Below are positions 1-19,410 of a DNA stretch of 64,000 nucleotides, one piece after another. Each line of letters opens with the position of its first letter. Positions within the stretch are counted from its first letter, which is position 1. A program made the position numbers and the translations under genes. The stretch is from an uncultured Verrucomicrobiae bacterium (GTDB lineage: Bacteria > Verrucomicrobiota > Verrucomicrobiia > Limisphaerales > JAFGQR01): contig CAWBHS010000072.1 of assembly GCA_963788655.1 (NCBI GenBank), forward strand, positions 320,001-384,000, in the 5' to 3' direction. The notes under the pieces were generated by a model. The model was not told where the DNA came from. It saw only the letters and a list, made by a program, of their open reading frames with translations, and searched no databases.

Positions 1-135
1 TGACCAATGTGCAATGACCAATGACCAGAGAATGCCCGATGACCAATGACCAGTTGGCCCGGGAAGGGTCGCCGGATTTCAAGGTGGAGCTTGGACATTG
101 GTCCTTCCTTGGTGCTTGGGCATTGGCTATTGGGC
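1..135. repeat. Degenerate heptamer (AATGACC-type) repeats with an inverted counterpart
   Basis: tgacca/aatgacc units at 1-52 and roughly complementary cattgg/ttggt units at about 90-135. Confidence 0.5.
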
Positions 136-193
136 CATCCGGGTTTTTCGAGTCTTGGCGCCAGCCGGCGCGCAAGACCCGTCGAGCGTTGCC

Positions 194-394
194 TTCCCCC
201 TCACCCCGACCCTCTCCCTTGGGGAGAGGGAGCCCGTTCGCCGCGGACGGGAGCCCGCGGATGGCACTCAGACCTTCGAGACCGCTTTGCACAAAAGTCG
301 AAGGGGCGGTCAATGCCACGGGCAGGTTCATATCAAATCGCAGCACCGCTGGCTGTTCCCTCTCCCTGAGGGAGAGGGTTAGGGTGAGGGGGAA
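194..394. repeat. About 200-bp MITE/REPIN-like element, copy 1
   Basis: Terminal inverted repeats TTCCCCCTCACCC...GGGTGAGGGGGAA, each arm with a CCCTCTCCC-n-GGGAGAGGG hairpin; interior colinear with 4154-4352. Confidence 0.85.
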
Positions 395-492
395 CCAGGC
401 TCCCTTGGTCCAAATGGCCGTCAGGAAATTCAGCGGGTGGTCAAGCCTGGCGCGAAGCCGAAGGCTTCCCCCAACCAGCTCAGTAACAATCG

Positions 493-3400
493 ATGAACAT
501 GGATAGTAGTTCGGGCAAAGTCGCAACAAAGGAATCGAGCGAGACGCAGACGGCTGCACACAATAGTCGCTCGAAAAACACCGCCACCATCACCACCCAG
601 AGCGGGCTCGATTTGCAGGTGGAGACGTTGGCCCGCCAGGGCCAACTCGAAGTTTCGCTCCACGCGCCTGCCGGCAAACGTTGCGTTTTGCACTGGGGCG
701 TTCGGCGCCAAATGCAGCAGGACTGGGCCGCGCCGCCGCAGTCGGTGTGGCCGCCGGACACGCAGCCAATGGGAGTGACCGCGGTGCAAACACCGTTCGC
801 CAAACAGAATGGCCAGCTCGGCATCGACATTCGCATGGACCTTGCTGCGGACTACGCCTCGCTGGATTTTGTGATCTTCTTTCCGGACGAAAAGCGCTGG
901 GACAACAACGGCGGCCGCAATTATCAGGTGGCTCTGACCAAGTCCAAACCGACGACCGATCCGCAGGCAGTCTTGCGGGCACGGTTGGGCGAAGAGGAAT
1001 TGCTTTTTGAACGCGCGTTCGATCTTGGCAACCAAGCAAAACTCGCGGTGGCCGTGGTCCGCACCGAGCAACAATATCGCTTCGAGGCGCTCACCAATCT
1101 CGGCGGACCGTTGCTGTTGCATTGGGGCATTGCGCGTCGGTCCCCGCGCGAGTGGCTGCTGCCGCCGGAGTCGATGCGCAATCACGTGACGACTGGCTTT
1201 GACGATCACGCGGTGCAAACACCCTTCGAAACGCAGGAAGGTTTCAACGCGCTCGCGCTCGCCGTCGCCGAGTCCGATGCGCCCCTGGGTTTGAATTTCG
1301 TGCTCAAACAAAACACGCCCGAGGGACGCTGGCTCAAGCATCGCGGCGGCAATTTCTACGTGCCGATCCACCAGGCCGCGACACAAGCCGGCGGCCAGGG
1401 TCTGGGCGAACTGGCTGGCCTGGCGGATGAAATCATCCAGGCCGAGACGGGACACAATTCCTGGACGTTGATGCATCGGTTCAATCTTTGTTACGACCTA
1501 TTGGACCGGGTCCAGCACAGTGTTGAAGGACAGGCGCTGCTTTATGTATGGCTGCGGTTCTCGGCCATTCGCCAGTTAACCTGGCAACGCAATTACAACA
1601 CCCAGCCACGCGAATTGGCGCACGCGCAAGACCGCCTGACGCAGAAGTTGGCCAACGTCTTTCGCAGCGAACCGGAAACGCGCCCGTTGGTTCGTTTGGC
1701 CCTGGCCACGGTGGGCCGCGGCGGTGACGGACAACGGGTGCGCGACGAAATCCTGCACATCATGCACCGGCACAACATCAAGGAAGTGACCGGCCATTTT
1801 CTCGAAGAATGGCACCAGAAGCTGCACAACAACACCACGCCCGACGACGTGGTGATTTGCGAAGCCTATCTCGAATTCCTTTACAGCAACGGCAATCGCG
1901 ACCGCTTCTATCAGACCCTGGAAAACGGCGGCGTGACCAAGCAGCGGTTGGAGAGCTTCGAACGGCCCATCCGGACCGAGCCGCAATTCGCCGGTCACCT
2001 CAAAGACGCGCTGATTCCTGACTTCCAGAATTTCTTGCGCGTGCTCAAATCCGTTCATTCCGGAACCGATTTCGAAACCGCCGTCAATGCCGCGCGCGGC
2101 CAGTTGGATGGCGACCTGCAAGGACTGCTGCACTACCTGGGCGAACACCGCAACGATCCGCCCGAGGGCGTGGTGAACTTGGTGAACCAAATCACCGACG
2201 CGCGGCGCCGCTTGTCCAATCGGCTGAACCAGGACGGCGGCTTGCGCGAATTACTCTACCTCGATCTGGCCCTGGAACAACTGCTGCGTGTGTCCGTGGA
2301 ACGGCATGTCCACTTGCGCTTCAATGGCGATCAGTTGGTCGATCTCATTGCCCGCGCGCTGGAGAACGTAACGCTGACTTACGAAGATCCCGAACTGGCT
2401 GCCTGTGCGCGTCACTGGGAACGATTGCAAGGCCTGCCACGCTTCAATGCCGATTGGGCGTTGCACGCCAAGTCCGTCGGTGACCGCATCGCGCGCGCTT
2501 TGACCACTTGGATTGATCGTTTCTATCAACTGCTCCAACCCAAGGCCGAATATCTCGGTGCCGGATTCCAGGCCGAGCCGTGGACGATCACGCTCTTCAG
2601 CGAAGAAGTGGTGCGCGGAAGCAGCCTGGGCTTCGTGGTGTCCATGCTGTTGCACCGCCTGGACCCGCTCTTGCGCAAGGCCGCCAACATCGGCGCCTGG
2701 CGCATCATCAGCCGCGGCGGCGGGGGCGGTCAAATTGAAGTGGTGGACAAGTTGGGCTCGATTCAAAACCAGCGCTTTGACAAACCCACCGTCGTTGTGA
2801 CGGACAAAGTGATGGGCGACGAAGAACTGCCCGACGGGGTCACCGCAGTCATCGCTCCGGACGTGACCGATATCGTGTCGCACGTGGCGGTGCGGGCGCG
2901 CAACTCGAATGTCCTGTTTGCATCCTGCCATGATCCGGAAATGTTGGCGCACTTGAAGTCGCTTCGCGGGCATCATGTTCATCTGACGGTCAATCCGGCC
3001 GGCGACGTGATCGTGCAGGAAACCGAGGCGGATGCGCCGGCGGCTGCGATCGAGTCGGTTCAGGAACGAATTTCACTCACGCCACGACAGTTCACGAAAT
3101 ACGCCATTACGCATGAAGAATTCCGCGAGGAACTCGTGGGGGGCAAGTCATGTCACCAGGCAGAACTGCGCGGCAAGTTGTCCGATTGGATTCATCTCCC
3201 GGCCTCGGCGGCGATTCCCTTCGGCGTCTTTGAAAAGGTATTGGGGTTACCCGCCAACCAGGAGTTGGCCAGGCGTTGCCAGGAGTTAACTCGACAAGCG
3301 GAAACCGGCAACACCGAAGCACTGGCCGACCTGCGGCGAACAGTTCTCCAATTGACCGCCCCCGACGAATTGCCGGACACCTTGCGCCAAGGCATGACCA

Positions 3401-4068
3401 AGGCCGGTCTGGATTGGCCTGCGGATTGGGACAAGACCTGGCGTTGCATCAAACAGGTCTGGGCTTCGAAGTGGAATGACCGCGCGTTCCTCAGCCGCAA
3501 GAAACTCGGCATCTCGCACGACCAACTGTTCATGGCGGTGCTCATCCAGTCGGTGGTGCCGGCGGATTATGCGTTCGTGGTCCATACGGTGAATCCGTCC
3601 ACCGGCAACGCCAACGAACTCTTCGCCGAAATCGTGCTGGGCCTTGGCGAAACCCTGGTCGGCAATTATCCCGGACGCGCGTTGAGTTTTGTGGTGGACA
3701 AAACGTCCGGCGCGCAGACGTTGCTGTCGTATCCCGGCAAAAGTATTGGCCTCTACGGCAGTGGCTTGATTTTCCGTTCTGACTCCAACGGTGAAGATCT
3801 GGCGGGATTCGCCGGCGCCGGCCTCTACGAAAGCGTCTTGCTTCAACCACCCCGCGTCGTGGAATTGGATTACACCGAAGAGCCGCTGGTGTGGGACGAG
3901 CGTTTCCGCCAGGACCTGCTCCAGACGATTGCGAAGATCGGGTTGGAAGTCGAAAAAGCCTTTGGCGCGCCGCAGGACATTGAAGGCGCGGTAGCGCGAG
4001 GCAAATACTTCGTTGTGCAAACGCGGCCGCAGGTGGGACTGGAGTCAACGACCGGCAGCAAGGGCTAA
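493..4068 (+). CDS. Alpha-glucan water dikinase (plant GWD1/R1-like) with tandem N-terminal CBM45-like domains
   Basis: Two LHWG..W..PP..AVQTPF modules; GWD-type motifs WLRFSAIRQLTWQRNYN, GQRVRDEIL and EEWHQKLHNNTTPDDVVICEAYL; phospho-His motif DIVSHVAVRARN (His codon 2881); C-terminal nucleotide-binding domain (FRSDSNGEDLAGFAGAGLYES, QDIEG, VVQTRPQ); no signal peptide. Confidence 0.92.
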   Translation: MNMDSSSGKVATKESSETQTAAHNSRSKNTATITTQSGLDLQVETLARQGQLEVSLHAPAGKRCVLHWGVRRQMQQDWAAPPQSVWPPDTQPMGVTAVQTPFAKQNGQLGIDIRMDLAADYASLDFVIFFPDEKRWDNNGGRNYQVALTKSKPTTDPQAVLRARLGEEELLFERAFDLGNQAKLAVAVVRTEQQYRFEALTNLGGPLLLHWGIARRSPREWLLPPESMRNHVTTGFDDHAVQTPFETQEGFNALALAVAESDAPLGLNFVLKQNTPEGRWLKHRGGNFYVPIHQAATQAGGQGLGELAGLADEIIQAETGHNSWTLMHRFNLCYDLLDRVQHSVEGQALLYVWLRFSAIRQLTWQRNYNTQPRELAHAQDRLTQKLANVFRSEPETRPLVRLALATVGRGGDGQRVRDEILHIMHRHNIKEVTGHFLEEWHQKLHNNTTPDDVVICEAYLEFLYSNGNRDRFYQTLENGGVTKQRLESFERPIRTEPQFAGHLKDALIPDFQNFLRVLKSVHSGTDFETAVNAARGQLDGDLQGLLHYLGEHRNDPPEGVVNLVNQITDARRRLSNRLNQDGGLRELLYLDLALEQLLRVSVERHVHLRFNGDQLVDLIARALENVTLTYEDPELAACARHWERLQGLPRFNADWALHAKSVGDRIARALTTWIDRFYQLLQPKAEYLGAGFQAEPWTITLFSEEVVRGSSLGFVVSMLLHRLDPLLRKAANIGAWRIISRGGGGGQIEVVDKLGSIQNQRFDKPTVVVTDKVMGDEELPDGVTAVIAPDVTDIVSHVAVRARNSNVLFASCHDPEMLAHLKSLRGHHVHLTVNPAGDVIVQETEADAPAAAIESVQERISLTPRQFTKYAITHEEFREELVGGKSCHQAELRGKLSDWIHLPASAAIPFGVFEKVLGLPANQELARRCQELTRQAETGNTEALADLRRTVLQLTAPDELPDTLRQGMTKAGLDWPADWDKTWRCIKQVWASKWNDRAFLSRKKLGISHDQLFMAVLIQSVVPADYAFVVHTVNPSTGNANELFAEIVLGLGETLVGNYPGRALSFVVDKTSGAQTLLSYPGKSIGLYGSGLIFRSDSNGEDLAGFAGAGLYESVLLQPPRVVELDYTEEPLVWDERFRQDLLQTIAKIGLEVEKAFGAPQDIEGAVARGKYFVVQTRPQVGLESTTGSKG

Positions 4069-4153
4069 GGCTTCAGGTGATGAAACGGACAGTTGCAACT
4101 CAGTCTTTCGGCGTGGCACACGTTGCGCCCAGGCTGGGTTGTCGAACGCGTTG

Positions 4154-4352
4154 TTCCCCCTCACCCCAGCCCTCTCCCTTGGGGAGAGGGAGCCCGTTTG
4201 GCCCGCCTCGAAAACAACGAATGGCACTCCGACCGTCGATGCCGCTTCGCGCGAAAGTCGAATGGGCGGTCAATGCCACGGACCAGCTCGAATCAAAGAG
4301 CAGTGCCTTCGGCTGTTCCCTCTCCCTGGGGAGAGGGTCAGGGTGAGGGGAA
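4154..4352. repeat. About 200-bp MITE/REPIN-like element, copy 2
   Basis: Same terminal hairpins and related interior (atggcactc, aaagtcgaa, ggcggtcaatgccacgg, ggctgttccctctccc) as 194-394. Confidence 0.85.
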
Positions 4353-4380
4353 GCACAACAACTAAACTCCCCGCATTTTC

Positions 4381-7300
4381 ATGATCCCCATCGGCAACCA
4401 GACTTCATTCTCCGCGGCCACGCCCACCGTGCCGTTTGATTACGCCCGCGCCAATGACTTTGATGCGTTTGAATGGTTTCCCGACAAGAAACCCGACGGC
4501 GCCGGTTGGGACGAAAGCGACTTGGATGAATCGCGGCGCCGGCACCTGGCCGAACTGGCGCGGGCGCAAAACATGCGCGTGTCCGTTCACGCCCGTTGGC
4601 AAGCCGATCCGCTGCGACCTGGTGCCCAACCGCTACTACTGAGGGATCTTGGACTGGCCCGCGATTTGGGCGCCGTGCTGGTCAATATTCACTTCAACCA
4701 CGAGCAAGGAGTCGAAGCATACGTTCAAGCGGTGATGCCGTTTGTTCGCCAAGTTGGTGAGGTGGGACTACAGCTTGCCATCGAGAATACCCCGCATCAT
4801 GCGCCGGAACAGTTTAACGAGTTGTTTGCGTGCTTGCAGGCGCTCGGCCGTGAAACCGTTCAGCACGTGGGAATGTGTTTTGATCTCGGCCACGCCAACC
4901 TGTGCGCGGCAACCCGTAACGATTATTTGCAGTTCCTCGACCGACTCGATCCGCGCGTGCCAATCATCCATTTGCATTTGCACGAGAATTGGGGTGATGC
5001 TGACAGCCATTTGCCGCTGTTCACCGGTCCCGCGGGGCGGAATGATGCAGGCATTCGCGGCCTGCTGGAACGGTTGCGTCAGCGTCAATATGCCGGCTCG
5101 ATCATCCTCGAACAATGGCCCCAGCCGCCTTCGCTGCTGAACCACGCGCGCGACCGGTTGCTTGACTTGCTTAATTCCTGTAGCAACGGGCGTGAGTCCG
5201 CTCATACTTCTCGTGCATCTGACGTAGCGGCGTCTCGTGAGAGCGCCGCTGACTTGAGCGAAACAAATTTGCAGCGCTCTCACGAGACGCCGCTACGCTC
5301 AGAGGTGGACGATTTCCAGGGCAAACTGGTCGCCGCTGATCAACAGCGCCGCAGTTGGCGGGAGAAGCTGGATTTCGTGCAGGGCCTGTTCACGGACGAC
5401 GCGACACCGCTCACGTCGGAGCAATTGGTCGATATTGCCATCTACCTTCGTTTCCTGGGCACCGGTGAGATCGTATGCGTCGAGGACGGACGGCACTTCC
5501 GTCCGGCCCACCATGCGCGCATGGCCCTGGAGATTCAGCGACGGTTGGCCGAACTGACCACGCCCGACACGGCGTTTATCGCGCGCAAGATTTATCCCTG
5601 GTTGCCCTCCTCGGCCCGGAGCTTTCAGCGCGCTGAGCCACTGACGCGGATTCGCGACATCGCGCATCGCAACGACATTCCCCAGGACCTGAAACGCGAA
5701 ATCAAGCACACCCTCCAAAACAAGCTGCATCGCTGTGCGGGGCCCGAAGACCTGGTGACCTCCACGAAACTGTTGGAACGAATCACCGCGCCGGCGGCCG
5801 ATTACGCGTCGGACTTTGTCGAGCAATTCAAAATTTTCCATGAAGAACTGAAAGAGTTTTTCAACGCCCAATCCTTGGACGAACGGCTGGATGCGCTGTT
5901 GCCCCACGTCGGCGCCAAGGAAACCGAATTGATCCAGCGGTTTCACAAACAGAAAACCAGCACAGCCCAGCCGGCGCTACGGGACGCCTTCAAGTCGCTG
6001 ACCGAATTGCGCTACTGTTTCCTGGAGGGCGCCGCCAAGTGCAAGCCGGAAGAAAAGCAGGAGTTCCTGCTGGCGGACATTGGGCTCGAAGATTTTGCCT
6101 TCGTCCTGTTGAGCAAAATCTTCAATGTCTTCGACGTTGCCAGGACCAAGGCCAAATGGGAACCGCTGCTGGAAACGCTGCGGTTGACCATCACCAACCT
6201 CGCCCTGAGCCGCGTCCAGCCTGAGGAATGCGACGCGCTGGGAGCCGAACTGCGGACTTGGAGCGCTGAACTGAATCCAAAAGACCGCGAACAACTGTTA
6301 CGTTTGAAAGCCACTGCGGACCGTTGTCGGCGTCTGGCGGAAGCTTACAGCGACCGGATTGCCGCGCTGTTCTTTCGGCGGGCCCGGGATCTGGGTCGCG
6401 CGCTGGAGGTGCCCGCGCATGCCATCCAGGTGTACTGCGACTCCGAAATCCGCGGCCATATCGTTTTCCAACTGGCGAAGCTGGTTTCCAGTCTCTTGCG
6501 TCGCGTCCGCGAGCAACTCGAATTGCCCGCCTGGGATGTGCTGGTTGCTGGGCAGGCGAGGGGCCGGTTGCGGATCACCAACCTGCTGGACGATGTGGGC
6601 CAGGATTTGCGCGAGCCCACCGTGGTGATTTTGAGTAACGCGGAAGGCGATGAAGAAATCCCGCAAAGCGTCACCGGCATTGTGCTGGGACACGGTATTC
6701 CGCATTTGTCGCATCTCGGAGTGCGCGCCCGTCAGGCCGGGGTGGTGCTGGTCACTTGCGAGGAGCCGGAAACGTTCAAGCAACTGGAGTGCTTCGATGG
6801 CCAATCGGTCTTGCTGTCGGCGACTCCCGAAAACGTAGAATGCACACCGGCCAAAAGCTCCGCCGCTACGACAAGCAGGGCTCCGGGCAGACCAGTGCTA
6901 GTTCCCGAAGTGCGCCTCGATCCCAAACGGCCTTGGCTGCCCCTGGAACAGGTCACTCCGGAATCCGGCGGGGGCAAAGCAAACGGCGCCCGGCGTTTGG
7001 CCGAATTGGCCCGCCGGAATGATGCCGGATTCAACACTCCCACCGGCGGCGTGATTCCTTTTGGCGTCATGGAAGCGGCGTTGCGCGCCAGGCCAGAGGT
7101 GGAAGCGGAATATGGCAAGCTACTCCAACAGGCCACCGGGAAGTCGGCTGACACGTTGACCGCGACAGCGGAACGGTTGCGCAGTTTGATCCAGCAGTTC
7201 GAGGTGCCCGAAGCGATTGCCAAAGCGATTGCCCAGACATTCAAGCCAGACGCCCGACTCATCGTCCGATCGAGCGCCAATTGCGAGGACTTGCCGGAAA

Positions 7301-7903
7301 TGGCCGGCGCCGGCCTCTATGAATCCGTCGCGAATGTGGCGCCCGCGGACGTAGCTGACGCCGTGCGGACGGTGTGGGCGTCGCTCTGGACCCGACGGGC
7401 CGCCTTAAGCCGTCAGCAAGCCGGTATTCCGCACGAACAGGCGCATATCGCAGTGCTCATCCAGGAGTTGCTCACGCCGGACTGCTCGTTTGTCCTGCAC
7501 ACCGTCAATCCGATCAATCACGACGCCGATGAAGTCTATGCCGAACTGGCGATTGGGCTGGGAGAAACACTCGCGTCGGCGGCTATTCGCGGCAATCCGT
7601 ATCGATTGATTTGCCCCAAAAGCTCCAAGGCAGTCACCACACTGGCCTTCGCGAACTTCAGCGAGTCGCTCTGGCCTGATCCCGCCGGCGGTCTGCAACG
7701 CAAAACGGTGGACTATTCGCGCGTCGAGTTGTCGCGAAACGCCGAAGCTCGCCAGCAACTCGGAAGACGCCTGGCGGCCATTGGCCGGTTGGTCGAAGCA
7801 GAATTGAAATCCCCCCAGGACATCGAAGGCGCGGTAGTTGGCGGCAGACATTTACCTCGTGCAAGCACGTCCACAACAGGGGCTGGGTAGCTATGAGCGC
7901 TAA
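4381..7903 (+). CDS. Fusion of AP-endonuclease-2/xylose-isomerase-like TIM barrel and phosphoglucan water dikinase (PWD/GWD3-like); frameshift near 7845
   Basis: N-terminal ~265 aa has AIENT, CFDLGHAN, HLHLHEN..DSHLP, IILE; PWD-type motifs SWREKL, EDGRHFRPAHHA, PLTRIRDIAHRNDIPQDLKREIKHTLQNKLHRCAGPEDL; phospho-His PHLSHLGVRARQ (His codon 6712); VRSSANCEDL..MAGAGLYES. The ORF track stops at 7890 but a shifted frame gives the expected IYLVQARPQ ending at TAA 7901-7903. Confidence 0.88.
5223..5297. repeat. Intragenic in-frame REPIN-like inverted repeat (GTAG-type REP pair)
   Basis: Perfect 24-bp arms CGTAGCGGCGTCTCGTGAGAGCGC (5223-5246) and its reverse complement (5274-5297); another GTAG-led half element at about 5180-5203. 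Confidence 0.8.
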
Positions 7904-7937
7904 CTCAGGCATGTTACCTATGGATACAGAAGGCGAT

Positions 7938-8053
7938 GTCGGACCGGCGTCCCGCGTGTCTCGAATTTCCCAACGACGCTCGACGTATCGCGGAACTGGC
8001 TGCAACGGTTGGGAGCCGCTGGTCATTCGGGACAGCCGGGACGGCTGTCCTAC
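7938..8053. repeat. 116-bp REPIN-like element, copy 1
   Basis: GTCGGACCGGCGTCCCGCGTGTC...GACAGCCGGGACGGCTGTCCTAC; same length and related ends as 29515-29630. Confidence 0.7.
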
Positions 8054-8088
8054 GGGCGTGTTCGCTCATTTGGATTTCCAATAGATTC

Positions 8089-9273
8089 ATGCGCCCCTCG
8101 CTTCCCCAGCATCCGCCAACCCTCGGGTTGTTCGAGAAACGGATCGACGGTGACGATTGCCTGATGGATTTGGCCCGGCTGCGTTTTCAGCAGGCTGGTA
8201 TGGGCACGGAAATGCACGCCGGCACACCCGCAGAATTGGATTGGGTCATGCAATGGCGTCCCTCGCCAGCGACACCTGTCGTGGTTCACTTGCCGCGGCA
8301 CTTCGATCTGACCGACGAGCACACGCGAGCCCAAGTTCAGGGAATGGCTGCTTACTCTGCCGGCCGGATTCATGGATTCGTGCTGCACGACGGCGCCGAT
8401 ATGGCGGTGCGCGCCGCAGACTATCACCGCGCGGCTCAGGAAATGGAATCGCGACTGGCGCGCATCCAGCAATGCCCGCTGCTGTTCATCGAATACGCGG
8501 CGGGCTTGGAACCGGATCTTTTCGCCGGTTTCTTTTCCTCCATCCGCAACTTGTCCCGTTTGAGCGCCTGCATCGACATCGGCCATGTAGGCATTCGGCA
8601 GGCGCGGAAAGCGTTTGCGCAGGTGCATCCCGGCGAAGATGTATGCGCGCTGAAGTCCAATCCTTCCCGCCTGCCGCAACTCATGCCGGACGTGGAAGCC
8701 GCAGTGCGAACGGCTTTACCAACCGTGCTGCACCTGATCGAAACGCTCGGTGCGCTGGGTAAACCGATTCACTTCCATTTGCACGATGGCCACCCACTTT
8801 CCACCTTCAGCCCGTTCGGCGTCTCGGATCACTTGAGCTTTTTCCAGGAGATGCCGCTGCCCTTCGATTGCCATGACCAGCAATCGTCGCCGTTGATGTT
8901 TGGTCCGAACGGCCTTTCCCGAATTGTCGCCAAAGCGATGGAGGCCATCGGTCGCGAACGGGTTTCGTTCACATTGGAAATTCATCCGACCTTCGAACGC
9001 CTGGCGTTGGGCGACGCGGCCAACCTCTTTGAGCATTGGCGTGACCGGACCAACGCCGAGATGATGAACCACTGGCTCGCGGTGCTCAGTCGAAACCATG
9101 AACTACTGCTGGCGGCAATCAGCAAGCGGGCGGCCGATGCGTTGGTGGCGCACTTGATACCTCGCCCGACGCCGTTGGTTTTGAACTCGCCCAGGCGACA
9201 GATAATGGCTCCGGTGATTCCTTGCGGATTCGCAACAATTTTGGAATCGCGTGCGATCAGTCCGCCGTTCTGA
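8089..9273 (+). CDS. AP-endonuclease-2/xylose-isomerase-like TIM-barrel metalloprotein of unknown function
   Basis: FIEY, CIDIGHVG, HFHLHDGH, SDHLSF and TLEIH metal-ligand pattern; start set at ATG 8089 because the upstream ORF part is REP sequence. Confidence 0.7.
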   Translation: MRPSLPQHPPTLGLFEKRIDGDDCLMDLARLRFQQAGMGTEMHAGTPAELDWVMQWRPSPATPVVVHLPRHFDLTDEHTRAQVQGMAAYSAGRIHGFVLHDGADMAVRAADYHRAAQEMESRLARIQQCPLLFIEYAAGLEPDLFAGFFSSIRNLSRLSACIDIGHVGIRQARKAFAQVHPGEDVCALKSNPSRLPQLMPDVEAAVRTALPTVLHLIETLGALGKPIHFHLHDGHPLSTFSPFGVSDHLSFFQEMPLPFDCHDQQSSPLMFGPNGLSRIVAKAMEAIGRERVSFTLEIHPTFERLALGDAANLFEHWRDRTNAEMMNHWLAVLSRNHELLLAAISKRAADALVAHLIPRPTPLVLNSPRRQIMAPVIPCGFATILESRAISPPF

Positions 9274-9318
9274 AGAGAATTGCTGAGCTCGGCTGTCGTC
9301 TATTGATTCGCCGATTCT

Positions 9319-11374
9319 TCACTTGGTTTTTGACTTCTTTCCGGTCTGCTTTTCTTTCGCACTGGAGACTGATACGGGCACCGTCGTGGTCGAGCTGTTT
9401 CCGGAGGCGTCAGTGCAGCGGACGGTCAGGGTGTAAACGCGATCCGCGCTTTTGCTGCTCTCCGCGCGCAGATTGGCTGTGAGCGGGCCCGTGAGCTCCC
9501 AGTCAGGACTGGTGTTGTCGCCCTTGCCAGTAGCCGGTTCACTGCTGTTGATGGCAATGAGCTCGACTGCCAGCGTCGGATCGCAATTGTCCGATACGGC
9601 GACGTTCAAGGTGACCGCCACCATCTTCTTATTGGCAGGCCACAAAGTGGGCTGATCGACGGTTACGCTGGCGATGACCGGAGCAGTGACATCTTTCACT
9701 GAGAGCGTCATCGTGCATACGCTGCGATTGCCGGCAGCATCCGTGACGGCCAGTTCGACCGGATAATCTCCCGAGACCCACCAACGTTCCGGCGACTGGA
9801 CTTTGGCTGAACACCAATGATTCCGCCGGGGTGCAGCCATCGGTCGCAGTTGCGAGCGAAATCAAATCAGGAATGGTTGCCTGGCAAGCATCATTCGCCG
9901 GCAGTTCCGAAGTAGTGGGGCAAACGATCTGCGGGGGCGTGGTGTCCACAACGGTGACCGTTACCGTATCCTCGGACGATTCACCCGCCGGGTCGGTGAC
10001 TTTCAACGTAAAGGTGTTAATGCCATTGCCCACCACCACGGGAATCGCGACCTCGGTTCCCAGCAAGTGGCCGTCGCAATACCATTCATAAGTCAGCGCA
10101 TCGCCGTCCGGATCCTGCGACGCGGCGCCATCGAGCCTTACCGTTGTGCCCGCGCCGGCGCATTCGACCTGTTGATCGGGGCCCGCATCGGCGACGGGAG
10201 GATTGTTGGCTGGGGCCCGATTCAAGGAGAGCAGAAACCATTCAGCGGAGCGGTTGATCACGCCATAGCCCAAGATGTGGCCGCCATCACTGATGTTGTA
10301 GGCGGCGAGCAGTTCCCATCCGGAGCCGGGAGGCAAGAGCGTGTTGAGGTCCACCATGGTCCCGTTTTCCCAGAGAAAGGCGTGACCGGCACCAGTGGCA
10401 TCTGCCGATTCACCGACCACCTGGCCGGATTGATTCATGTCATAGACACTGCTGTAAGATCCACCAAGAGTTTCCAAATCCGTCAGGGCCCCGTCCGCGT
10501 AAATGAAACCGTGCCAGCCCCGGGACGCTGTAAGCGAATCTCCGCTGACCTGCCCTTTTCGATTGATCGCCACCGGGCTGGTGTAGCCTCCGCCCAAGGT
10601 CCCCAAGTCGTGCAAGTTACTGCCATCGTAGAGAAAACCGTGCGTTTCCCGATTCTCTGCCGTGTTCGCAAAACCGGTGATCCAACCGTCGTCATTGATA
10701 TCCACCGCCGAACTATAAGTGCCGCCCAGCGTGCCCAGGTCGGTCATGGAACCATCCCGCCACAGAAACGCGTGCGTCTCCTGGTTGTCGGTTGTGGTGG
10801 ATTCCCCCACCACCCAACCGCGGCCGTTCAGTCCGTAGCACGAACTGTAGGCCCCGCCCAAGGTTCCCAAATCGATCATGCTGTGGCCGTCATAGAGAAA
10901 AGCGTGCGTATCGTAGTTGTTGGCGATCACTGAATCACCGGCTACCCAACCGGCGTCGTTGATGGCCACGGCGGAACAGAACCACCCACCCAAACTGCCC
11001 AGACTTTCCATGCGACCATCGCGAAATAGGAACGCATAAGTGGCGGCGTCATTCGCCACGGCGGAATACCCGGCAACTTGTCCGCTCGCGTTGATGGCGA
11101 AGGCGGCGCTGTAGGAACCACCCAACGTGCCGAGGTCCATCGTCATCGCCTCGCTAAAAACGTAGGCGTGATCTTCGGCATTGCCCAAGGTCATGGAATC
11201 TCCGGCCACCACCCCTTGCGCGTTCACCGCGTAGGCCGTGGCATAGCTGCCGCCCAAGGAGCCCACGCGGACGATGGTCGGCGTCTGGCTCTGAGCGCGA
11301 GTTTGAACAAGAAGAACGGCGAGAACTGCGATCCAAGTTCCCACCCCATACAACTGGTTGGCTTGGTGTTTCAT
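9319..11374 (-). CDS. Secreted HAF-repeat protein with PKD/HYR-like domains (frameshift near 9770)
   Basis: Signal peptide; many DLGTLGG..S.A..IN..G.V.G....HAFL repeats; NNPPVADAGPDQ PKD module; C-terminus (DYPVELAVTDAAGN..LWPANKKMV) continues in ORF 9319..9840. Confidence 0.8.
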
Positions 11375-11705
11375 GCCTTCGCCTTCAGCATCAGTTAAGC
11401 CAAAACGTTGCTGCGGCTAATCCGGCGCAGTATCAAGACTTCGCTGTCCCTTTGGCAACAACACGTGGCTCAGAATGGGTCAACTGAAGCGCACGATGAG
11501 ACACAGCGCGCCAGGGAAGGGGAGGCGTGAATGGGTAAAGGGCTGAAGAGTTGAAGCGGCCGATGAAGGGTGTAGTTGGCAAAATTGTTTTGAGGCGTGG
11601 AGGGCAACGCACGGCAACTTTCGGGCAACTCAAAACGTTATTGTGAGCTTACTGATGAGAGCTTGGGATGGACGACGCATGGTGACATTCAATCGGCTCG
11701 TTCTG

Positions 11706-11837
11706 CCTCATCCTAACCCTCTCCCCAAGGAGAGGGAACAGATGGAGGTGCCGCTACGGAAACCAAGGGACATCGTGTTTTCAGAAGTCCGGTCATCGAT
11801 TCTCCCTCTCCCTGGGGGAGAGGGCCGGGGTGAGGGG
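11706..11837. repeat. Shorter member of the CCCTCTCCC/GGGAGAGGG hairpin-ended element family
   Basis: CCTCATCCTAACCCTCTCCCCAAGGAGAGGG...CCCTCTCCCTGGGGGAGAGGGCCGGGGTGAGGGG; interior differs from copies 1 and 2. Confidence 0.7.
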
Positions 11838-11945
11838 AAACAAAACCATCGGTTAATCCAAAGTGTATTCCATCCAGTCAACTGCACAGTACATCCCAAT
11901 AATTGACAATTGCGAGTTCTGGCAGCAACCGGGTCATCCATCTGG

Positions 11946-13204
11946 TCATTCCGGCAGCGGCTGGCCTTTGGTTTCCTTTGCGAACCAAATCAGAAGCAGG
12001 CCCAGCAGATACACCAACGTGATGACCGCACCGGCCCTTGCGTAGCTGCCTTCAAACCGGGACACAAGCTGCCCTTGGGTCAGGGCGCCCACGGCGGCAA
12101 ACATCCGGCCGGAGTTGTAACACACCCCTTGTCCCGTCGCCCGCACGCGCGTGGGAAACAATTCCGGCAAGTAAAGCGGCAGCCAGCCATAGAAAGCGGC
12201 CGTAAACGCGCCGACCAAGAATGCCATTACCACGAACTGGGTTCCATAGGCATTGACCGCGCGAAACAGGTAGCCGCACAGCACCAGTGAGCCCAGGCAT
12301 AAACCAAAATACGCCGGGCGCCGTCCAAACCGGCCGCCGAATAAGGGCCCGACAAAGGAACCAATGATGGCCCCGCCGCCAATGGCAAACAAGGTGACCG
12401 CCTTGGCGGCCGGTTGCTGGCCATGGGTCAACTGGTCCGCCCAGAGCGGCAGCCATTGCACCGAACCCCAGGTGCCGATCAGGGCAATCGAAGCAAAAGC
12501 AATGGCGAGCAACGTGGTCTTGACCAATCGCACGGCGAGAAGATTTCCTGCAACGGTCGGCTGGCGCCGCGTTGGACGGCTTGCTTCCATTTTTCCGACT
12601 CCGGGACAAAGAATTGAATCACGAGCGCCAGCACCGCCGGCGCGGCCCCGGCCACCATCACCCAACGCCAGGATTCGCGGGTCACCTGGAAACTCATTCC
12701 CACGATGGCGATCAGCACGAAACCCACGTTCGACGCCACGCCAATCACTCCGGCCAGCAGCGGGCTTTTTTCGCGGGGCCAGCTTTCCATGACCAACGCG
12801 ACCCCCAGCGACCATTCGCCCCCCATCCCGAAGGCGGCGAGGAACCGGAGCGCGCCCAAGTGCCACGGTTGCGCCGCGAAAAAACAGAGGCCAGTAAAGA
12901 CCGAATAGGTGAGGATGCTCAGCACCATCGAGCGCACCCGGCCCAAGCGGTCGCCCAGCCAGCCAAAGGCCAGACCGCCCAACGCCGCCCCGACCAGAAA
13001 CAACGCCGTGATGTGCCCCATCCATAATCCGATGAACTGGTCCGGCGCGGCGGCAGCCTCGGCCGGCATCATCGATTGCAGCGCAGGACGGGCCACCAGC
13101 GGGAAGATGCCCATCTCCAGCCCGTCAAACATCCAGCCCAGGAACGCCGCCAACAACACCAGCCAGCGACCGCGGTTCGAGACATTTGCCGTGGCAGTCG
13201 TCAT
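11946..13204 (-). CDS. MFS transporter (frameshift near 12530)
   Basis: GWMFDG, GWLGDRLGRVR, GMGGEW in ORF 12479..13204; RFGRRP and LPELFPTRVRATGQG in ORF 11946..13025. Confidence 0.85.
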
Positions 13205-13280
13205 CGGCGTCGAAGGGCGGCCATTACAGAATTCAACCGAGCGGCGATGCCCGTAATCACGCTGGGCGCGGAGACGAGGT

Positions 13281-14440
13281 TTACTGCGTTTCCAACTCCT
13301 GACGGTCAGGCAACGCGGGGAATTTCCCGTGCGGTTCCTTTTGATACCAGTAGGCCACCGACGAGATGACGTCTTCCAACTTGAGGTAGCGACCGCCGGA
13401 TTGCCAGCCGAGCGCCTGGATGGTGACCTTCAGATCCTTCTCGAAGCGGACCGGATCGGGAATGTGCCAGCGGTACAGACCGAAGCGTTGGCCCGGCTCA
13501 TACACTTTGTCCGGCGGAATGACCTGCGCCAAGCCGGTGTAGGGCGTGCGAGAAGGGCTGGTATTTTTTGGTCTCGCGGTTCTCGAAATTGTAGGAGCCG
13601 CAGAAGTAATCTTCCGTGCCCGTGCCGCATATCGTGGGAAACTCCTGGTCGCCGTCGAGGTAGAACTTGATTTCGCCTTCGCCCCACCAGCCGGGACTGT
13701 GGACTTCCCACGCCAGGTACGTGCCGACGTATTGGCCCTGGCCTTCGACGCCATCGAGAATGGTGTAGAGGCCTTTGGTTTTGAGCGGTTTTTCCTGACG
13801 GAATTGCGCGTGAAAATAGGCGGCGTTGCCCGGCACCGTGGTCAGGGTGTAATTGATCTGGTAATACAGCGTCATGTCCTTGTCATCGAGGTTTTCCATG
13901 GTGACGCGGCAACTCTTGCGGAAGGGCATTGGCCAGTAACAATTGAAGGCGCTGCCGGGATTCACGCAGACGGCCAGCGAGTTGATCTGGCAATACTTCC
14001 CCCAACCGCACGCAAAGAAGTCGCCGACCGGGCATTCGACCGACGGCTCGGTTTCCCCGTCCCAATAGAAACGCAGGATGGAATTGCGCCAGTTGCCGGT
14101 CGGCGTCATCCAGATGCTGTTGGATGCAGCCCGGCCCCTTGATTTCGGCCAGCGTGAACGTGGTCTTGGACTTGATCCGCACCGAAGGGGAAACCTTCCA
14201 GCCTTGGCCCAGTTCGCGGGCGGCATTCTTGCCAGTGCCTTCGGTGGCCATGCCGGCCTTGCCCTTTTCGCCGGTGAAGTTTTCGGGACTGATCGAGCGG
14301 GACTTGGCGGAAGACAGGCGAAACAGGTTGCCAAGTTGAGTATTCAGGCCATTGAACTGGGCGGCGTGGACGGCGGAATTTTCAAGTTGGCACCAGGCGA
14401 ACGCGCCCAGGCCGATCAGTAAGCAGCGAATGAATTTCAT
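13281..14440 (-). CDS. DUF2961 / GH172-like glycoside hydrolase with signal peptide (frameshifts near 14115 and 13545)
   Basis: SRSISPENFTGEKGK, GPGCIQ, IWMT, PSVECPVGDFF, WWGEGEIKFYLDGD..PTICGTGTEDYF, YRWHIPDPVRF, SSVAYWYQ across three frames. Confidence 0.8.
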
Positions 14441-14580
14441 GGTTTTCGTTCTCCGAGAGTTGCAAGGGTTGCCGCAGCCCGGGGACGAAATGACCAACGC
14501 GCTGGAAACAGCATGGGTCAGGGCTGCGATGTTGTGCATGCCCTGATGTAGGAAGAAGCCTGGCGGTTTGGCAACCTTTT

Positions 14581-15855
14581 TTAATTGGGCATGTCCGGCT
14601 CCGGCGCTGCCTCCGGCGGCGGTTCGGCCCGCTCGGCGAGCTTTTGTTCGAGCATTTTTTGCAGCTCGGTTTGCGTTTCGCCGATCGAGCGCAGGATGCT
14701 TTCGTCGGTGGTGTTGCGCTTGAGGTAATCCAGCAGTTCCAACCGCCCTTGAATGATCTGGGGTTCCTTGGGGGTGGCGGCGCGATGGCCACCGGAGAGG
14801 CTGAGCACCATGAAGCTCTTCAAGTTGTCCGGCATCGCTTCGCTCGCGATGGCCGACGCAAACATTTCGTTGGCTTGCGCCTGGCCACCGACATATTGCA
14901 GCGCTTGCTTGAGCACGGCGGTTTTCTCCCAAACATTGGTGAGCCGGGGATCGTTGTAGGCGTTGTAAATCAACGGTAGTGCGTCTTCCTTGAGCATCAT
15001 TGTCAGGTAGCCCAGCGTTGTGCGATCCACAGTCCCCTCCGGGGTGACCAATTTGGCCTGGGCTTCCGCCACGTACGTGGTGTCGCCGTACATCTTGAGC
15101 ACTTCATAAAGATAGGCACGGGCGTTGTCGTCGAGCCGGTTGGGCGAATCAACGGGCGGCGGATTGAGCAACAATTCCTTGGCCGCGGTAATGGCGGCAT
15201 CGCGATACTTCGAGGGGGCGATTTGCTCAAGAATGCGCGCCAGATAAGCCACTTCGACCCCACGCCCGGTGGTGGCCAGCACTTCGGCCAGGATGTTCTC
15301 CGCTTCCTGTCCGCCAATGCGTTTAAGGACATCCATCAAGCCCAGGCGCAACGAAGGGGGCACCAGGAAATCCGTGCGCGCCGGATTGAAAGTGGGAGTG
15401 GCCCGCCGCGCCCGCTCGCCCGTGGCCGTCAAGTCGCCGGAGGTGTAATAAACGTCCTGGTTTTTGACGAGGAATTCCCGAATGACTGGCAGGGCCTTTC
15501 TGTCGCAATCGGCCAGACGTTGAAACTGGGCAATGATCATCCGCAACGTCTGATTGCGCGTCTCGTCGGTTTCCTTCGGGTCCAGGCTGATCAGTTCTTC
15601 CAGGATTTCCTGCGGCGAATAGACATTGGTGCCGTAGGATTTGGTGACCGTTTCAGTGATCACCCGCGGCGGCATGGCGGCTTTGGCGCGGGCGGCCGTC
15701 AGGGCGGCCTCCAAATCGGCTTTTTCCCGCTCCCATTGGGCTTGGGCATTGGCCAGTTCCAGGCGCAGTTGCGCGTTCTTATTATGGGAAACCACGCCGT
15801 AAGCAATGGCGAGAACCATTGCCCCGGCCAGCAGATACGTCAAAACAGTCTTCAT
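14581..15855 (-). CDS. Hypothetical membrane-anchored helical protein
   Basis: Long ORF with N-terminal hydrophobic segment then a coiled-coil-like stretch; no family recognised. Confidence 0.7.
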   Translation of the reverse strand: MKTVLTYLLAGAMVLAIAYGVVSHNKNAQLRLELANAQAQWEREKADLEAALTAARAKAAMPPRVITETVTKSYGTNVYSPQEILEELISLDPKETDETRNQTLRMIIAQFQRLADCDRKALPVIREFLVKNQDVYYTSGDLTATGERARRATPTFNPARTDFLVPPSLRLGLMDVLKRIGGQEAENILAEVLATTGRGVEVAYLARILEQIAPSKYRDAAITAAKELLLNPPPVDSPNRLDDNARAYLYEVLKMYGDTTYVAEAQAKLVTPEGTVDRTTLGYLTMMLKEDALPLIYNAYNDPRLTNVWEKTAVLKQALQYVGGQAQANEMFASAIASEAMPDNLKSFMVLSLSGGHRAATPKEPQIIQGRLELLDYLKRNTTDESILRSIGETQTELQKMLEQKLAERAEPPPEAAPEPDMPN

Positions 15856-16217
15856 TGCTAATGGCTGAGTCACACGTTTAAACACCGCGGCTGCGCGCCA
15901 GATTCAAAAATTCTTCCGACCCAACAAATTCCATGTCATTGGCATAGCAAGCCTTGGGCCTAAACAATGGGGCAGTTTATCATCAGCCGGGAGCGGGGAG
16001 CAAATTCTATTGCTCGGCAAGAGCATCCATCGTTGGCGCTGACGGTTCTCGTTATCGACAACCAGGCCTCAACAGAAGTCAGGAGACAGCTTCTCGGTCG
16101 GTTAGAAACGGCGACGTGCGAACGTGCTTGCCCCGAGCGAGACAAGCCGACAAACACGGTGAGGGGAAATTCAGGGATGGTATGTTTCGACTGAAAATCG
16201 CGAATCTGCCCTTTGGC

Positions 16218-16673
16218 TTAACCAGCGGAGTTCGCGAGGCTGGCCGGCTCAACAACCGTGATGCTGTGAAAACCCGCAAAATCCGTCGGATTGAATGTCA
16301 GTAAACAATCGATCGCGTTGGCTTTCATGACCGCCACCAGCCGCGCATCATGAACGCGTTTGCCGACGACGGGTATGTTTTCAACCAAGCGCAACCACTC
16401 GATGAGAATTTGCGGGCTTTCTTCAACCACCGGAAACTTATCACGAAGAACCTTTATCTCCCGGCGGGTGCATTCGAGATCCCACCCTAATCCGTTGGCG
16501 CCTACTGGCCGAGTCGCCACGGCCCAGAACTCGACCAGATTCTGGGCGGTAATGAAGACTTCGTGATTCGCGCGGAAAAGCGTCGCCAGCGCGTGCGCCG
16601 CGATGGGGTTCTGCGGAGAATGTGTGTCCATCAGCCGCAGCAGCAGGTTCGTGTCGGCCAAATAGCGTGCCAT
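16218..16673 (-). CDS. vapC: PIN-domain (VapC-like) toxin
   Basis: YLADTNLL, QNLVEFW, RVHDARLVA, LLTFNPTDF; ATG overlaps the upstream TGA. Confidence 0.85.
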   Translation of the reverse strand: MARYLADTNLLLRLMDTHSPQNPIAAHALATLFRANHEVFITAQNLVEFWAVATRPVGANGLGWDLECTRREIKVLRDKFPVVEESPQILIEWLRLVENIPVVGKRVHDARLVAVMKANAIDCLLTFNPTDFAGFHSITVVEPASLANSAG

Positions 16674-16936
16674 CACTCGTAAATTGCGTCTCGGCCAACC
16701 GCCTGATTCGACAAACCCGGACCGTCCGTGTGGCTGGCTGCCCATTGGAGAATGTCCTTAGCACGCTCCTCGGGCGTGGCGGTCATCCAGAACGGCGTCT
16801 CGCCTTGGGCTGGCGCGAGAATCACCTGCTGGCCTTGGCGTGAGGCCACGTAACGAGTGTGCGGCTCGGGGCAAGGCAGAATCGCTTGGGGAAGTCGCAA
16901 CGTACCGGACTCATCCACTTCAACAATCGTGCTCAT
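16673..16936 (-). CDS. Putative antitoxin (AbrB-like N-terminus)
   Basis: 87 aa, VEVDESGTLRLP start, ends RDAIYE; translationally coupled to the PIN gene. Confidence 0.7.
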   Translation of the reverse strand: MSTIVEVDESGTLRLPQAILPCPEPHTRYVASRQGQQVILAPAQGETPFWMTATPEERAKDILQWAASHTDGPGLSNQAVGRDAIYE

Positions 16937-17127
16937 ACACGAAGAACTCTAAACTAAAGGGTTGAGCTAGAAAAGGACCGAAATTCAGCCGTTATTTGCG
17001 TTTCAAACGCTTGATTCTGTCAAACGGTGTCAATGATGAACCATGGTTCACTTCCCTATATGCTGACCATGATTTAATGGCGGCATCACCCCACGTGACG
17101 ACGTTTGTGCGGTGGAATCCGGTTACC

Positions 17128-18570: not shown

Positions 18571-18607
18571 GCCATTGCTTTTCGCGGTTGTTTCCCCCAA
18601 AGTCAAG
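18571..18607. repeat. 37-bp direct repeat, left copy
   Basis: GCCATTGCTTTTCGCGGTTGTTTCCCCCAAAGTCAAG, identical to 24481-24517; abuts the DUF2851 start codon. Confidence 0.95.
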
Positions 18608-18704
18608 CATTTGCACCCCAGACAAGTTGGGGCTCCGTATGCCTATTGGTAAAACCAGATACCAACTCCCGGCAGACTTTTGGCGAAACTGGAGGGTGAC
18701 GTTT

Positions 18705-19400: not shown

Positions 19401-19410
19401 AAAACCATGA

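Follow-up and report, generated by a model that had tools for sequence, protein, structure and literature searches.

Can a bacterium phosphorylate its own alpha-glucan with dikinases of the plant type? Alpha-glucan,water dikinase (GWD) and phosphoglucan,water dikinase (PWD) count as hallmark enzymes of eukaryotes that store starch. The question is raised by one end of a 64,000-nucleotide stretch of DNA (the window) from an uncultured Verrucomicrobiae bacterium (contig CAWBHS010000072.1, positions 320,001 to 384,000), for which a first-pass annotation had described a GWD gene and a PWD gene acting on a cytoplasmic alpha-glucan. Both dikinase genes are there, adjacent and co-oriented, and a third co-oriented open reading frame (ORF) follows them; this gene, ORF C, and a triosephosphate isomerase (TIM) barrel within the second dikinase, ORF B, had been overlooked (Table 1). 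Read from their sequences, ORFs A, B and C probably form (at a probability of about 0.6) a cytoplasmic module for the reversible phosphorylation of the cell's own alpha-glucan, be it glycogen or a more crystalline, starch-like polymer.

ORF A follows plant and algal GWD1 (potato R1/StGWD1, Arabidopsis SEX1; EC 2.7.9.4) in the order of its parts, namely two CBM45 modules, a central helical domain, a phospho-histidine domain and an ATP domain; the layout of StGWD1 is that given in the accessible part of its structure paper (PMC13553574). Pfam detected Ig_N_CWD1 (CBM45-type) twice (E 2e-45, best stretch 173-292), GWD1_pHisD at residues 735-846 (E 2e-34) and PPDK_N (E 5e-28); the Pfam matches of ORFs A and B, at E 1e-24 to 1e-45, include none by chance. 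The central domain matched that of potato GWD (9ha9 and 9qvi) at E 5e-94 and 6e-93 in a phmmer search of the PDB. All motifs quoted in the first-pass annotation were recovered, EEWHQKLHNNTTPDD and SHVAVRARN in ORF A and RIRDIAHRNDIP..LK.EIKHTLQNKLHR.AGPEDL and HLSHLGVRARQ in ORF B, and the predicted catalytic histidines carry the numbers assigned to them, 797 and 778. The tandem CBM45 modules, the central domain, the histidine and ATP domains and the position in the tree described below all place ORF A among the GWDs, and homology strongly predicts that it is a GWD-type dikinase transferring phosphate to a glucosyl hydroxyl, which in plant GWD is that of C6. By eye, the N-termini show no hydrophobic stretch and no secretion signal. 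ORF A differs from plant and algal GWD1 in being about 250-350 residues shorter, in lacking a transit peptide and the DUF7067 linker found in most eukaryotic GWDs, in belonging to a separate all-bacterial clade (support 99) and in lying in an operon-like cassette.

A word-indexed protein-cluster search returned 1809 matches to ORF A among 8000 candidates. The 119 relatives among the matches listed had 58-70% identity, were 975-1201 amino acids (aa) long and carried the three domains of ORF A; where they have names, the Joint Genome Institute (JGI) calls them alpha-glucan,water dikinase, and NCBI PEP/pyruvate-binding protein (Verrucomicrobia). When the search was directed at eukaryotes, with residues 449-1191 (743 residues) as the query and targets longer than 1302 aa, it gave 81 long GWD-type proteins at 30-44% identity. 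Plants, algae and apicomplexans account for those with names (Catharanthus, Ceratodon, Klebsormidium, Chara, Chlorella, Neospora and Toxoplasma), with further matches in Cyanophora, Baffinella and Biecheleria, and most of these long proteins contain the DUF7067 segment. One gene model, P0300 of Volvox carteri, joins a eukaryotic GWD to a dual-specificity phosphatase domain (PF00782), as a natural fusion or a merged model. The NCBIfam models for phosphoenolpyruvate (PEP) synthase and rifamycin phosphotransferase scored at most 73 bits on ORF A against cut-offs of at least 598. ORFs A and B are 28% identical across their last ~600 residues.

ORF B combines AP_endonuc_2 at residues 19-251 (73.1 bits against a cut-off of 31.1) with GWD1_pHisD at 717-827 and PPDK_N at 864-1152. 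PWD, also called GWD3 (EC 2.7.9.5), resembles it in the central, histidine and ATP domains, all of which ORF B has, apart from ~16 residues at the end of the ATP domain, which are out of frame. Where PWD begins with a CBM20, ORF B has a metal-type TIM barrel instead, and in some genomes a second, C-terminal TIM-type domain is fused to the protein as well. The central domain is related to that of GWD at the level of profiles (PWD-type against GWD-type in hhalign: probability 99.8%, E 4e-29, 393 columns); the single ORF B sequence found no GWD central-domain match in the PDB at E 1e-3, the homology being visible only with profiles. His778 is invariant in 30 of 30 aligned ORF B-type sequences. 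ORF B is thus, by its domains, a PWD-type core without PWD architecture and not a canonical PWD, and the GWD and PWD pair first described stands for ORF A and, on domains, relatives and tree, for the core of ORF B, and fails at the missing CBM20 and the fused barrel. With moderate confidence, homology with plant PWD, whose target is C3, predicts that this core acts on glucan already phosphorylated.

The relatives of ORF B bear out the type of its core. Of 1293 protein-cluster matches, the 119 relatives among the matches listed had 51-65% identity, all with the TIM barrel, GWD1_pHisD and PPDK_N, and many are named phosphoglucan,water dikinase by JGI. When 1.84 billion representatives were searched exhaustively, 515 matched at E <=1e-30. 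Pfam, run on 42 of the best 150, found the TIM barrel in seven, a C-terminal extension of ~350 residues in nine (one of them also among the seven), CBM20 in 24 and neither in three. Since the next relatives after its own family are these CBM20-bearing dikinases (24/42), the core is of the PWD type. The closest are CBM20-bearing eukaryotic PWDs, at 34-44% identity over ORF B residues ~305-1155 (central, histidine and ATP domains), and the ORF B-type central domain is the best central-domain match of all 17 sequences in the PWD group of the tree (33-43%). Ten of the best 150 were looked up, nine of them within the scanned 42 (eight with CBM20, and P0421 without it) and the tenth, P0404, scanned too and of the CBM20 type. 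Five carry organism names, all algal or plant: Porphyridium purpureum and Cucurbita pepo are annotated as PWD, and Porphyridium aerugineum, Chlorokybus and Mesotaenium have the organism name only.

Both genes had been described as having intact phospho-His and nucleotide-binding domains, and Pfam does find GWD1_pHisD and PPDK_N in each; the end of ORF B departs from that description. Eight homologues finish, in an alignment, with ...IEGAVVGxxIYLVQxRPQQGL. In a three-frame translation the frame of ORF B itself reads GGRHLPRASTSTTGAG and a stop (7888-7890), and the +1 frame reads ADIYLVQARPQQGLGSYER and a stop (7901-7903), with the conserved ending IYLVQARPQQGL at 7850-7885. As the homologue ending occurs only in the +1 frame, an insertion or deletion (indel) of one nucleotide lies between about 7843 and 7850. 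An assembly indel seems more likely than a real defect, a leaning that comes from an HtrA-like gene in the window that is similarly split. Over its remaining 1150 codons ORF B has an open frame, and none of the residues invariant in the 30 sequences is missing from it.

The barrel of ORF B belongs to PF01261 both by profile and by its TIM fold. Invariant in two alignments were H70, H104, E135, D168, H171, H197/199/201, D208, H210 and E244. Its profile matched MJ1311 (3wqo, E 3e-13) and Mycobacterium tuberculosis endonuclease IV (5zhz, E 4e-5) in the PDB, and Foldseek, given an AlphaFold2 (AF2) model with a pLDDT of 94.3, returned 3wqo (TM 0.75), then African swine fever virus (ASFV) AP endonuclease, UlaE, psicose epimerases and endonuclease IV. 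The barrel shares its family and a candidate ligand pattern with the AP endonuclease 2/xylose-isomerase-like superfamily (endonuclease IV, MJ1311p, CbiR), its closest solved member being MJ1311, and the TIM units described here differ from those proteins in being fused to, or standing beside, glucan dikinases. MJ1311p reportedly keeps the nine zinc ligands of endonuclease IV and has no DNA groove. The pattern H, H, E, D-x-x-H, H, D-x-H, E of the barrel aligns with M. tuberculosis endonuclease IV, eight ligand-type positions being identical to 5zhz; by sequence comparison only, order and spacing are those of the nine-ligand endonuclease IV set as far as the sources give it. In the available text on the Chlamydia pneumoniae enzyme, the metal ligands are His75, His115, Glu153, Asp187, His190, His224/229, Asp237, His239 and Glu269 (PMC13113976). 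That this superfamily can hydrolyse a sugar-phosphate ester outside DNA is shown by CbiR, according to the accessible portion of PMC7733943.

ORF C is kin to the ORF B barrel, as judged from profile-profile comparison and from its modelled fold. It had no Pfam match at E 0.01, PF01261 included, and BLASTP found no significant match between ORF C and ORF B; hhalign, in turn, aligned ORF C with the ORF B barrel profile at a probability of 96% (E 5e-9), with the candidate ligand columns in register. The CbiR model matched both TIM units weakly, ORF C at E 0.0034. An alignment of 40 sequences showed H118, H151, E186, D214, H217, H279/281/283, D298, H299 and E348 to be invariant; ORF C has D-H at D298-H299 where the ORF B barrel and endonuclease IV have D-x-H, and ~60 residues are inserted between its D-x-x-H and H-x-H-x-H motifs. 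Met52 (nucleotide 8089) is nearly invariant in the same alignment and therefore probably the true start. The AF2 model of ORF C (pLDDT 85.2, pTM 0.80) retrieved the ASFV AP endonuclease (6ki3/6khy) first in Foldseek, then rhamnose/xylose isomerases, psicose epimerases and endonuclease IV, and the protein atlas offered 'hypothetical protein' clusters only, with a weak AP_endonuc_2 lead at 0.87. Its residues ~54-400 share 42-54% identity with the C-terminal extension seen in ten of the 150 dikinase representatives, so that elsewhere the homologue of ORF C lies in one polypeptide with a dikinase.

The cassette is widespread, and its enzymes are no rarity among bacteria. Scanning a single genome for each of 185,579 species brought up 305 ORF B relatives in bacterial genomes, a figure that, with the 1809 and 1293 protein-cluster matches, runs counter to the earlier statement that these enzymes are known chiefly from starch-storing eukaryotes. 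The best 80 matches gave 78 loci, which by record title belong to Nitrospirota (24), Thermodesulfobacteriota (19), Verrucomicrobiota (16), Pseudomonadota (6), 'Deltaproteobacteria' mapped to Myxococcota (5), anammox Planctomycetota (3), Fibrobacterota (1) and a record labelled Chloroflexota (1), with three unplaced. Two of the loci come from isolates, Luteolibacter marinus NBU1238 (L065) and Desulfobacterota bacterium M19.

The survey of neighbourhood conservation proposed in the first-pass annotation shows the cassette to be kept across these loci. In a tblastn tabulation, a co-oriented GWD gene stood immediately upstream in 41 of the 50 loci with enough upstream sequence, the TIM barrel came directly before the PWD-type central domain in 64 of 69 (exceptions L061, L063, L064, L066 and L075), and ORF C was the next gene downstream in 54 of 57. 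A gene of ~435 aa from glycoside hydrolase family 13 (GH13; hDGE_amylase and Alpha-amylase in Pfam) came right after ORF C in 24 of 46 loci and was present anywhere in the locus in 33; ORF C and GH13 are fused in six loci, and in L016 and L022 barrel, dikinase and ORF C form a single protein. The distance between barrel and central domain is ~6 kb in L075 (3156-3938 and 10007-12565) and ~0.9-1.2 kb in L063 and L064 (10001-14500), which suggests insertions. L055 (Candidatus Anammoxibacter, 10001-23153) has the TIM-PWD gene and ORF C and, further downstream, GWD, a second TIM stretch (20986-21777) and GH13.

Among the neighbours, surveyed by clustering 888 self-called ORFs and scanning one representative per cluster with Pfam, were a GT5 starch/glycogen synthase (15 loci), a GH57 branching enzyme (9), a DUF4912 protein (8), other GH57 proteins (5), GlgB (4), GH13 with CBM48 (4) and phosphorylase (3). 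One or more such alpha-glucan genes, the GH13 gene counted among them, were found in 42 of the 78 loci and in 34 of the 47 loci of at least 15 kb, and GT5 synthase stands immediately upstream in the nearest verrucomicrobial loci. The DUF4912 protein recurs by the cassette in its eight loci, for example at 15830-16663 in L037.

The first-pass annotation had proposed a phylogeny against plant dikinases and bacterial pyruvate phosphate dikinase (PPDK) or PEP synthase; the tree built here, of GWD and PWD-type rows, placed ORF A in a GWD clade and ORF B in a PWD clade. The tree had 69 rows and 909 columns, covered the core from the central domain on, and was built by an IQ-TREE quick search and LG+C20 with posterior mean site frequencies (PMSF). 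Its bacterial rows, 18 GWD and 16 PWD-type, came from the window and 19 of the 78 loci; its eukaryotic rows were 18 of the 81 long GWDs and, as the PWD group, 17 of the 150 representatives, of which five are named and 12 were taken as eukaryotic by architecture (11 with CBM20, and P0421 without) and position only. The split between GWD and PWD had support 100. On the GWD side the bacterial sequences, ORF A included, formed one clade of 18 rows (99); on the other, bacterial and eukaryotic PWD-type rows together formed one clade (100), within which the eukaryotic group (88) and 15 bacterial rows (92) each held together, and the Fibrobacteria row was unresolved beside the bacterial clade. In the free quick tree Neospora and one other long branch fell outside the remaining GWDs (support 80), a placement of the apicomplexan GWDs that would nest bacteria among eukaryotes. 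This reading was rejected, since a tree that keeps the 18 eukaryotic GWDs in one group is 15.1 log-likelihood units better (approximately unbiased test, p-AU 0.763).

Bacterial and eukaryotic versions are separate in both paralogues, so the duplication predates their separation; the suggestion that the locus bears on the origin of the eukaryotic dikinases goes further than this. The tree fixes no root within either paralogue and leaves the direction of transfer open; with the genes linked in bacteria, it is easier to imagine both having moved in one event out of bacteria, but this is reasoning and no finding. By eye, the two bacterial subtrees have broadly similar internal groupings, which fits inheritance or transfer as a unit. 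A bolder view, which we consider doubtful, would make the cassette a bacterial, possibly ancestral starch phosphorylation machinery, with GWD and PWD duplicated in bacteria and passed to eukaryotes as linked genes, the TIM units new phosphatases outside the dual-specificity phosphatase (DSP) fold, the whole cycle held in one operon, and the carriers storing semi-crystalline glucan.

In the proposed module, ORF A would bind the glucan through its two CBM45 modules and pass the beta-phosphate of ATP by way of His797 to a glucosyl hydroxyl, that of C6 in plant GWD. The PWD-type core of ORF B would act likewise through His778 on glucan already phosphorylated, at C3 in plant PWD. Homology with the plant enzymes suggests both dikinase roles. 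For the third step we infer that the barrel of ORF B and ORF C may be metal-dependent phosphoesterases that strip the phosphates from the glucan once its chains have been opened, since candidate ligands of the endonuclease IV type are kept; as candidate glucan phosphatases, they would by analogy take the role of the unrelated SEX4 and LSF2 in plants. Two loci in which GWD is accompanied by a stand-alone TIM gene only also count in favour. SEX4, LSF2 and laforin have the DSP fold and resemble the TIM units in this proposed role only, with no relation in sequence or fold, and Pfam found no DSPc domain in ORFs A-C or the 31 other ORFs of the window that were scanned. According to the available text of a review (PMC13666283), removal of C6 and C3 phosphate by SEX4, LSF2 and laforin in plants and animals lets glucan breakdown finish. 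The amylase/debranching-type GH13 enzyme encoded in most other genomes would then cut the opened chains. An alpha-glucan is the favoured substrate because related loci hold a GT5 synthase, GH57 and GH13 branching enzymes, the GH13 amylase-type gene and phosphorylase; this synteny supports the alpha-glucan first suggested, and the window itself adds no glycogen gene.

Several observations weigh against the proposed module. The GWD gene is not adjacent in 9 of 50 loci (L001, L015, L020, L021, L023, L028, L039, L052 and L055), ORF C is absent in 3 of 57 (L039, L058 and L068), and the ORF C profile drew from PDB sequences four weak matches (E 0.14-0.72) that look like chance. The best structural match of the ORF B barrel, MJ1311, has no known function and is labelled a 'D-tagatose 3-epimerase-like protein'; in Foldseek UlaE and psicose epimerases do as well as endonuclease IV; and the fold, as modelled, does not separate a phosphoesterase from a sugar isomerase or epimerase. 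It is accordingly possible, though we think it unlikely, that the dikinases work as proposed and that the barrel and ORF C isomerise or epimerise sugars or sugar phosphates, are other metal enzymes acting on released products, or serve as a glucan-docking module in place of CBM20. The barrel does occupy the place of CBM20 in eukaryotic PWD; MJ1311, UlaE (an L-xylulose-5-phosphate 3-epimerase) and psicose/tagatose 3-epimerases rank alongside endonuclease IV; and PF01261 takes in both chemistries, according to the accessible portion of PMC7733943. Residues within a glucan, however, are not ketoses. Ketose epimerases use the set E-D-H-E, so that five invariant residues of the ORF B barrel (H70, H104, H171, D208 and H210) are extra, and these stand at endonuclease IV ligand positions. 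A docking role by itself is disfavoured by the invariant residues of metal-ligand type.

Further points against the module concern the state of this particular copy. The last ~16 codons of ORF B are out of frame, a repeat is inserted between ORFs A and B, and the closest relatives with flanking sequence both lack the PWD core: L069 (8531-12501) and L076 (8066-12795) have GWD followed by a stand-alone TIM gene (271 and 317 aa, respectively), without PWD core or ORF C, and may represent a minimal GWD-plus-TIM set or the loss of the PWD arm. Taken together, the tail, the repeat and the L069/L076 loss suggest that the PWD arm may be decaying in this lineage. The module could thus be degenerating in this organism, with ORF B reduced to a pseudogene and ORF A still at work, either alone or together with ORF C, a reading to which we give somewhat less credence than to the isomerase or docking roles. 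It would account for the lost IYLVQxRPQ ending, the repeat and the lack of a GH13 partner in the window, which most related loci possess; it sits poorly with the 1150 open codons of ORF B that retain every residue invariant in 30 sequences, and the HtrA-like gene split between frames fits assembly indel errors.

Pfam found no CBM20 or other recognisable carbohydrate-binding module in ORF B and no glycogen gene in the 64-kb window (31 ORFs besides A-C, spanning 21 to 63997), points that also weigh against the module; the sequence 5' of ORF A, which bears on the missing glycogen genes, is cut off by the window edge. A different substrate would suit both findings, whether starch or maltodextrin taken up from prey or from plant remains, some exopolysaccharide, or, as with rifampin phosphotransferase, a small molecule, and the C-terminal half of ORF B does match the NCBIfam PEP synthase and rifamycin phosphotransferase models. 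These matches are far under the cut-offs (73-129 bits against 598-1700), ORF A has two CBM45 modules, no secretion signals were seen by eye, and related cassettes adjoin GT5 synthase, branching enzymes, GH13 and phosphorylase, all of which makes such a substrate improbable. PEP synthase, PPDK and rifampin phosphotransferase share the ATP-grasp and swivelling phospho-histidine domains with ORFs A and B and differ in domain order and in having no GWD-type central domain. That the genes are ordinary members of those families, or come from a eukaryotic contaminant or a chimeric contig, a possibility named at the outset as a refutation, is very unlikely indeed: the gene order recurs in 78 bacterial loci, both isolates included, the proteins fall in the GWD and PWD clades and not with PEP synthase, and the genes are intron-free among bacterial-type genes in a stretch of uniform composition (GC 0.53-0.63 along the whole window).

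In the literature searched, bacterial GWD genes receive one passing mention in print, and no account of the cassette, of a dikinase-TIM fusion or of ORF C was found. Bacteria figure in Fig. 9 of Cenci et al. (PMC6260743), in the part of that paper available; the word stem 'bacteri' is absent from the StGWD1 structure paper (PMC13553574), in its accessible text; and the glucan phosphorylation machinery is regarded as unknown in prokaryotes in the portion available of a 2026 review (PMC13666283). A 2026 preprint (10.64898/2026.09.25.754361) states, in its accessible text, that among eukaryotes the presence of GWD shows a perfect correlation with crystalline glucan, and counts 'some Verrucomicrobia', citing a book chapter, among prokaryotes with starch-like material. 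Automatic annotation already gives both dikinases their names; their architecture differs from the eukaryotic one, and the family is large and barely described. A linked cassette of GWD, PWD-type, TIM and GH13 genes in at least six bacterial phyla offers a concrete candidate for the question of starch-like glucan in prokaryotes, with L. marinus NBU1238 as a culturable test organism, and a duplication older than the bacterial/eukaryotic split puts the place of origin of starch phosphorylation back in question. Should the TIM units prove to be phosphatases, an important reaction would gain a new class of enzyme, one that might be of use in modifying starch.

Table 1. Features of the dikinase locus and associated repeats (window positions).
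Feature	Position	Strand	Evidence
ORF A, bacterial alpha-glucan,water dikinase (GWD type), 1191 aa	493..4068	+	Pfam, relatives, tree
ORF A central helical domain, residues 301-732, presumed glucan-facing, contains EEWHQKLHNNTTPDD	1393..2688	+	phmmer vs PDB
His797 codon, predicted phospho-histidine, motif SHVAVRARN, inside GWD1_pHisD	2881..2883	+	computed position
ORF B, metal TIM barrel and PWD-type dikinase core, 1169 aa	4381..7890	+	Pfam, relatives
ORF B N-terminal xylose-isomerase-like/endonuclease-IV-like TIM barrel, residues 19-251	4435..5133	+	Pfam, profiles, AF2, Foldseek
ORF B central domain, PWD type, about residues 310-716, contains RIRDIAHRNDIP...EIKHTLQNKLHRCAGPEDL	5308..6528	+	hhalign
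His778 codon, predicted phospho-histidine, motif HLSHLGVRARQ	6712..6714	+	computed position
Frameshifted ORF B tail	7843..7903	+	8-homologue alignment, three-frame translation
ORF C, divergent paralogue of ORF B TIM barrel, 445 aa as longest ORF	7936..9273	+	hhalign, AF2, Foldseek
Repeat copy 1, ~200 nt, ~38-nt inverted ends, 5' of ORF A	194..391	.	blastn vs window
Repeat copy 2, between ORF A and ORF B	4154..4350	.	blastn vs window
Shorter repeat copy	11706..11843	.	blastn vs window

The surroundings of the three genes agree with the earlier description of bacterial neighbours and of a repeat family shared with the rest of the window. By Pfam the 31 other ORFs scanned are bacterial in type, among them a WD40 Ser/Thr kinase, RCC1 repeats, lamin-tail/CotH and Big_7 proteins. 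Proteins encoded upstream in related loci (GT5, GlgB and others) had no tblastn match in positions 1-600 of the window, and a scan of 1-9800 for promoters and terminators gave 2 and 12 sites, where chance alone predicts 1.8 and 12.3, and is uninformative about how the operon is built. When intergenic stretches were compared with the window by blastn, repeat copies 1 and 2 were 81% identical over 198 nt, and the inverted ends of copy 1 paired 194-231 with 394-357. The family is MITE-like (miniature inverted-repeat transposable element) or REP-like (repetitive extragenic palindrome); its two ~200-nt copies flank ORF A and the shorter one lies near 11.7 kb. The spacer between ORFs A and B is 312 nt here, compared with about 10-20 nt in L003, L047 and L008. 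ORFs at 21-506 and 4013-4384, which run through the repeat copies, are spurious. Two ORF B homologues, P0156 and P0215, contain, within the coding sequence, long inserts of low complexity that abound in G, R, E and P and resemble translated intergenic repeats. Further along the + strand, a trypsin-like protease ORF (24639-25619) and an ORF with two PDZ domains (25595-26161) overlap by 25 nt in different frames; the pair looks like a single HtrA/DegP-type gene broken by a frameshift, which suggests that indels, whether from assembly or real, also occur elsewhere on the contig.

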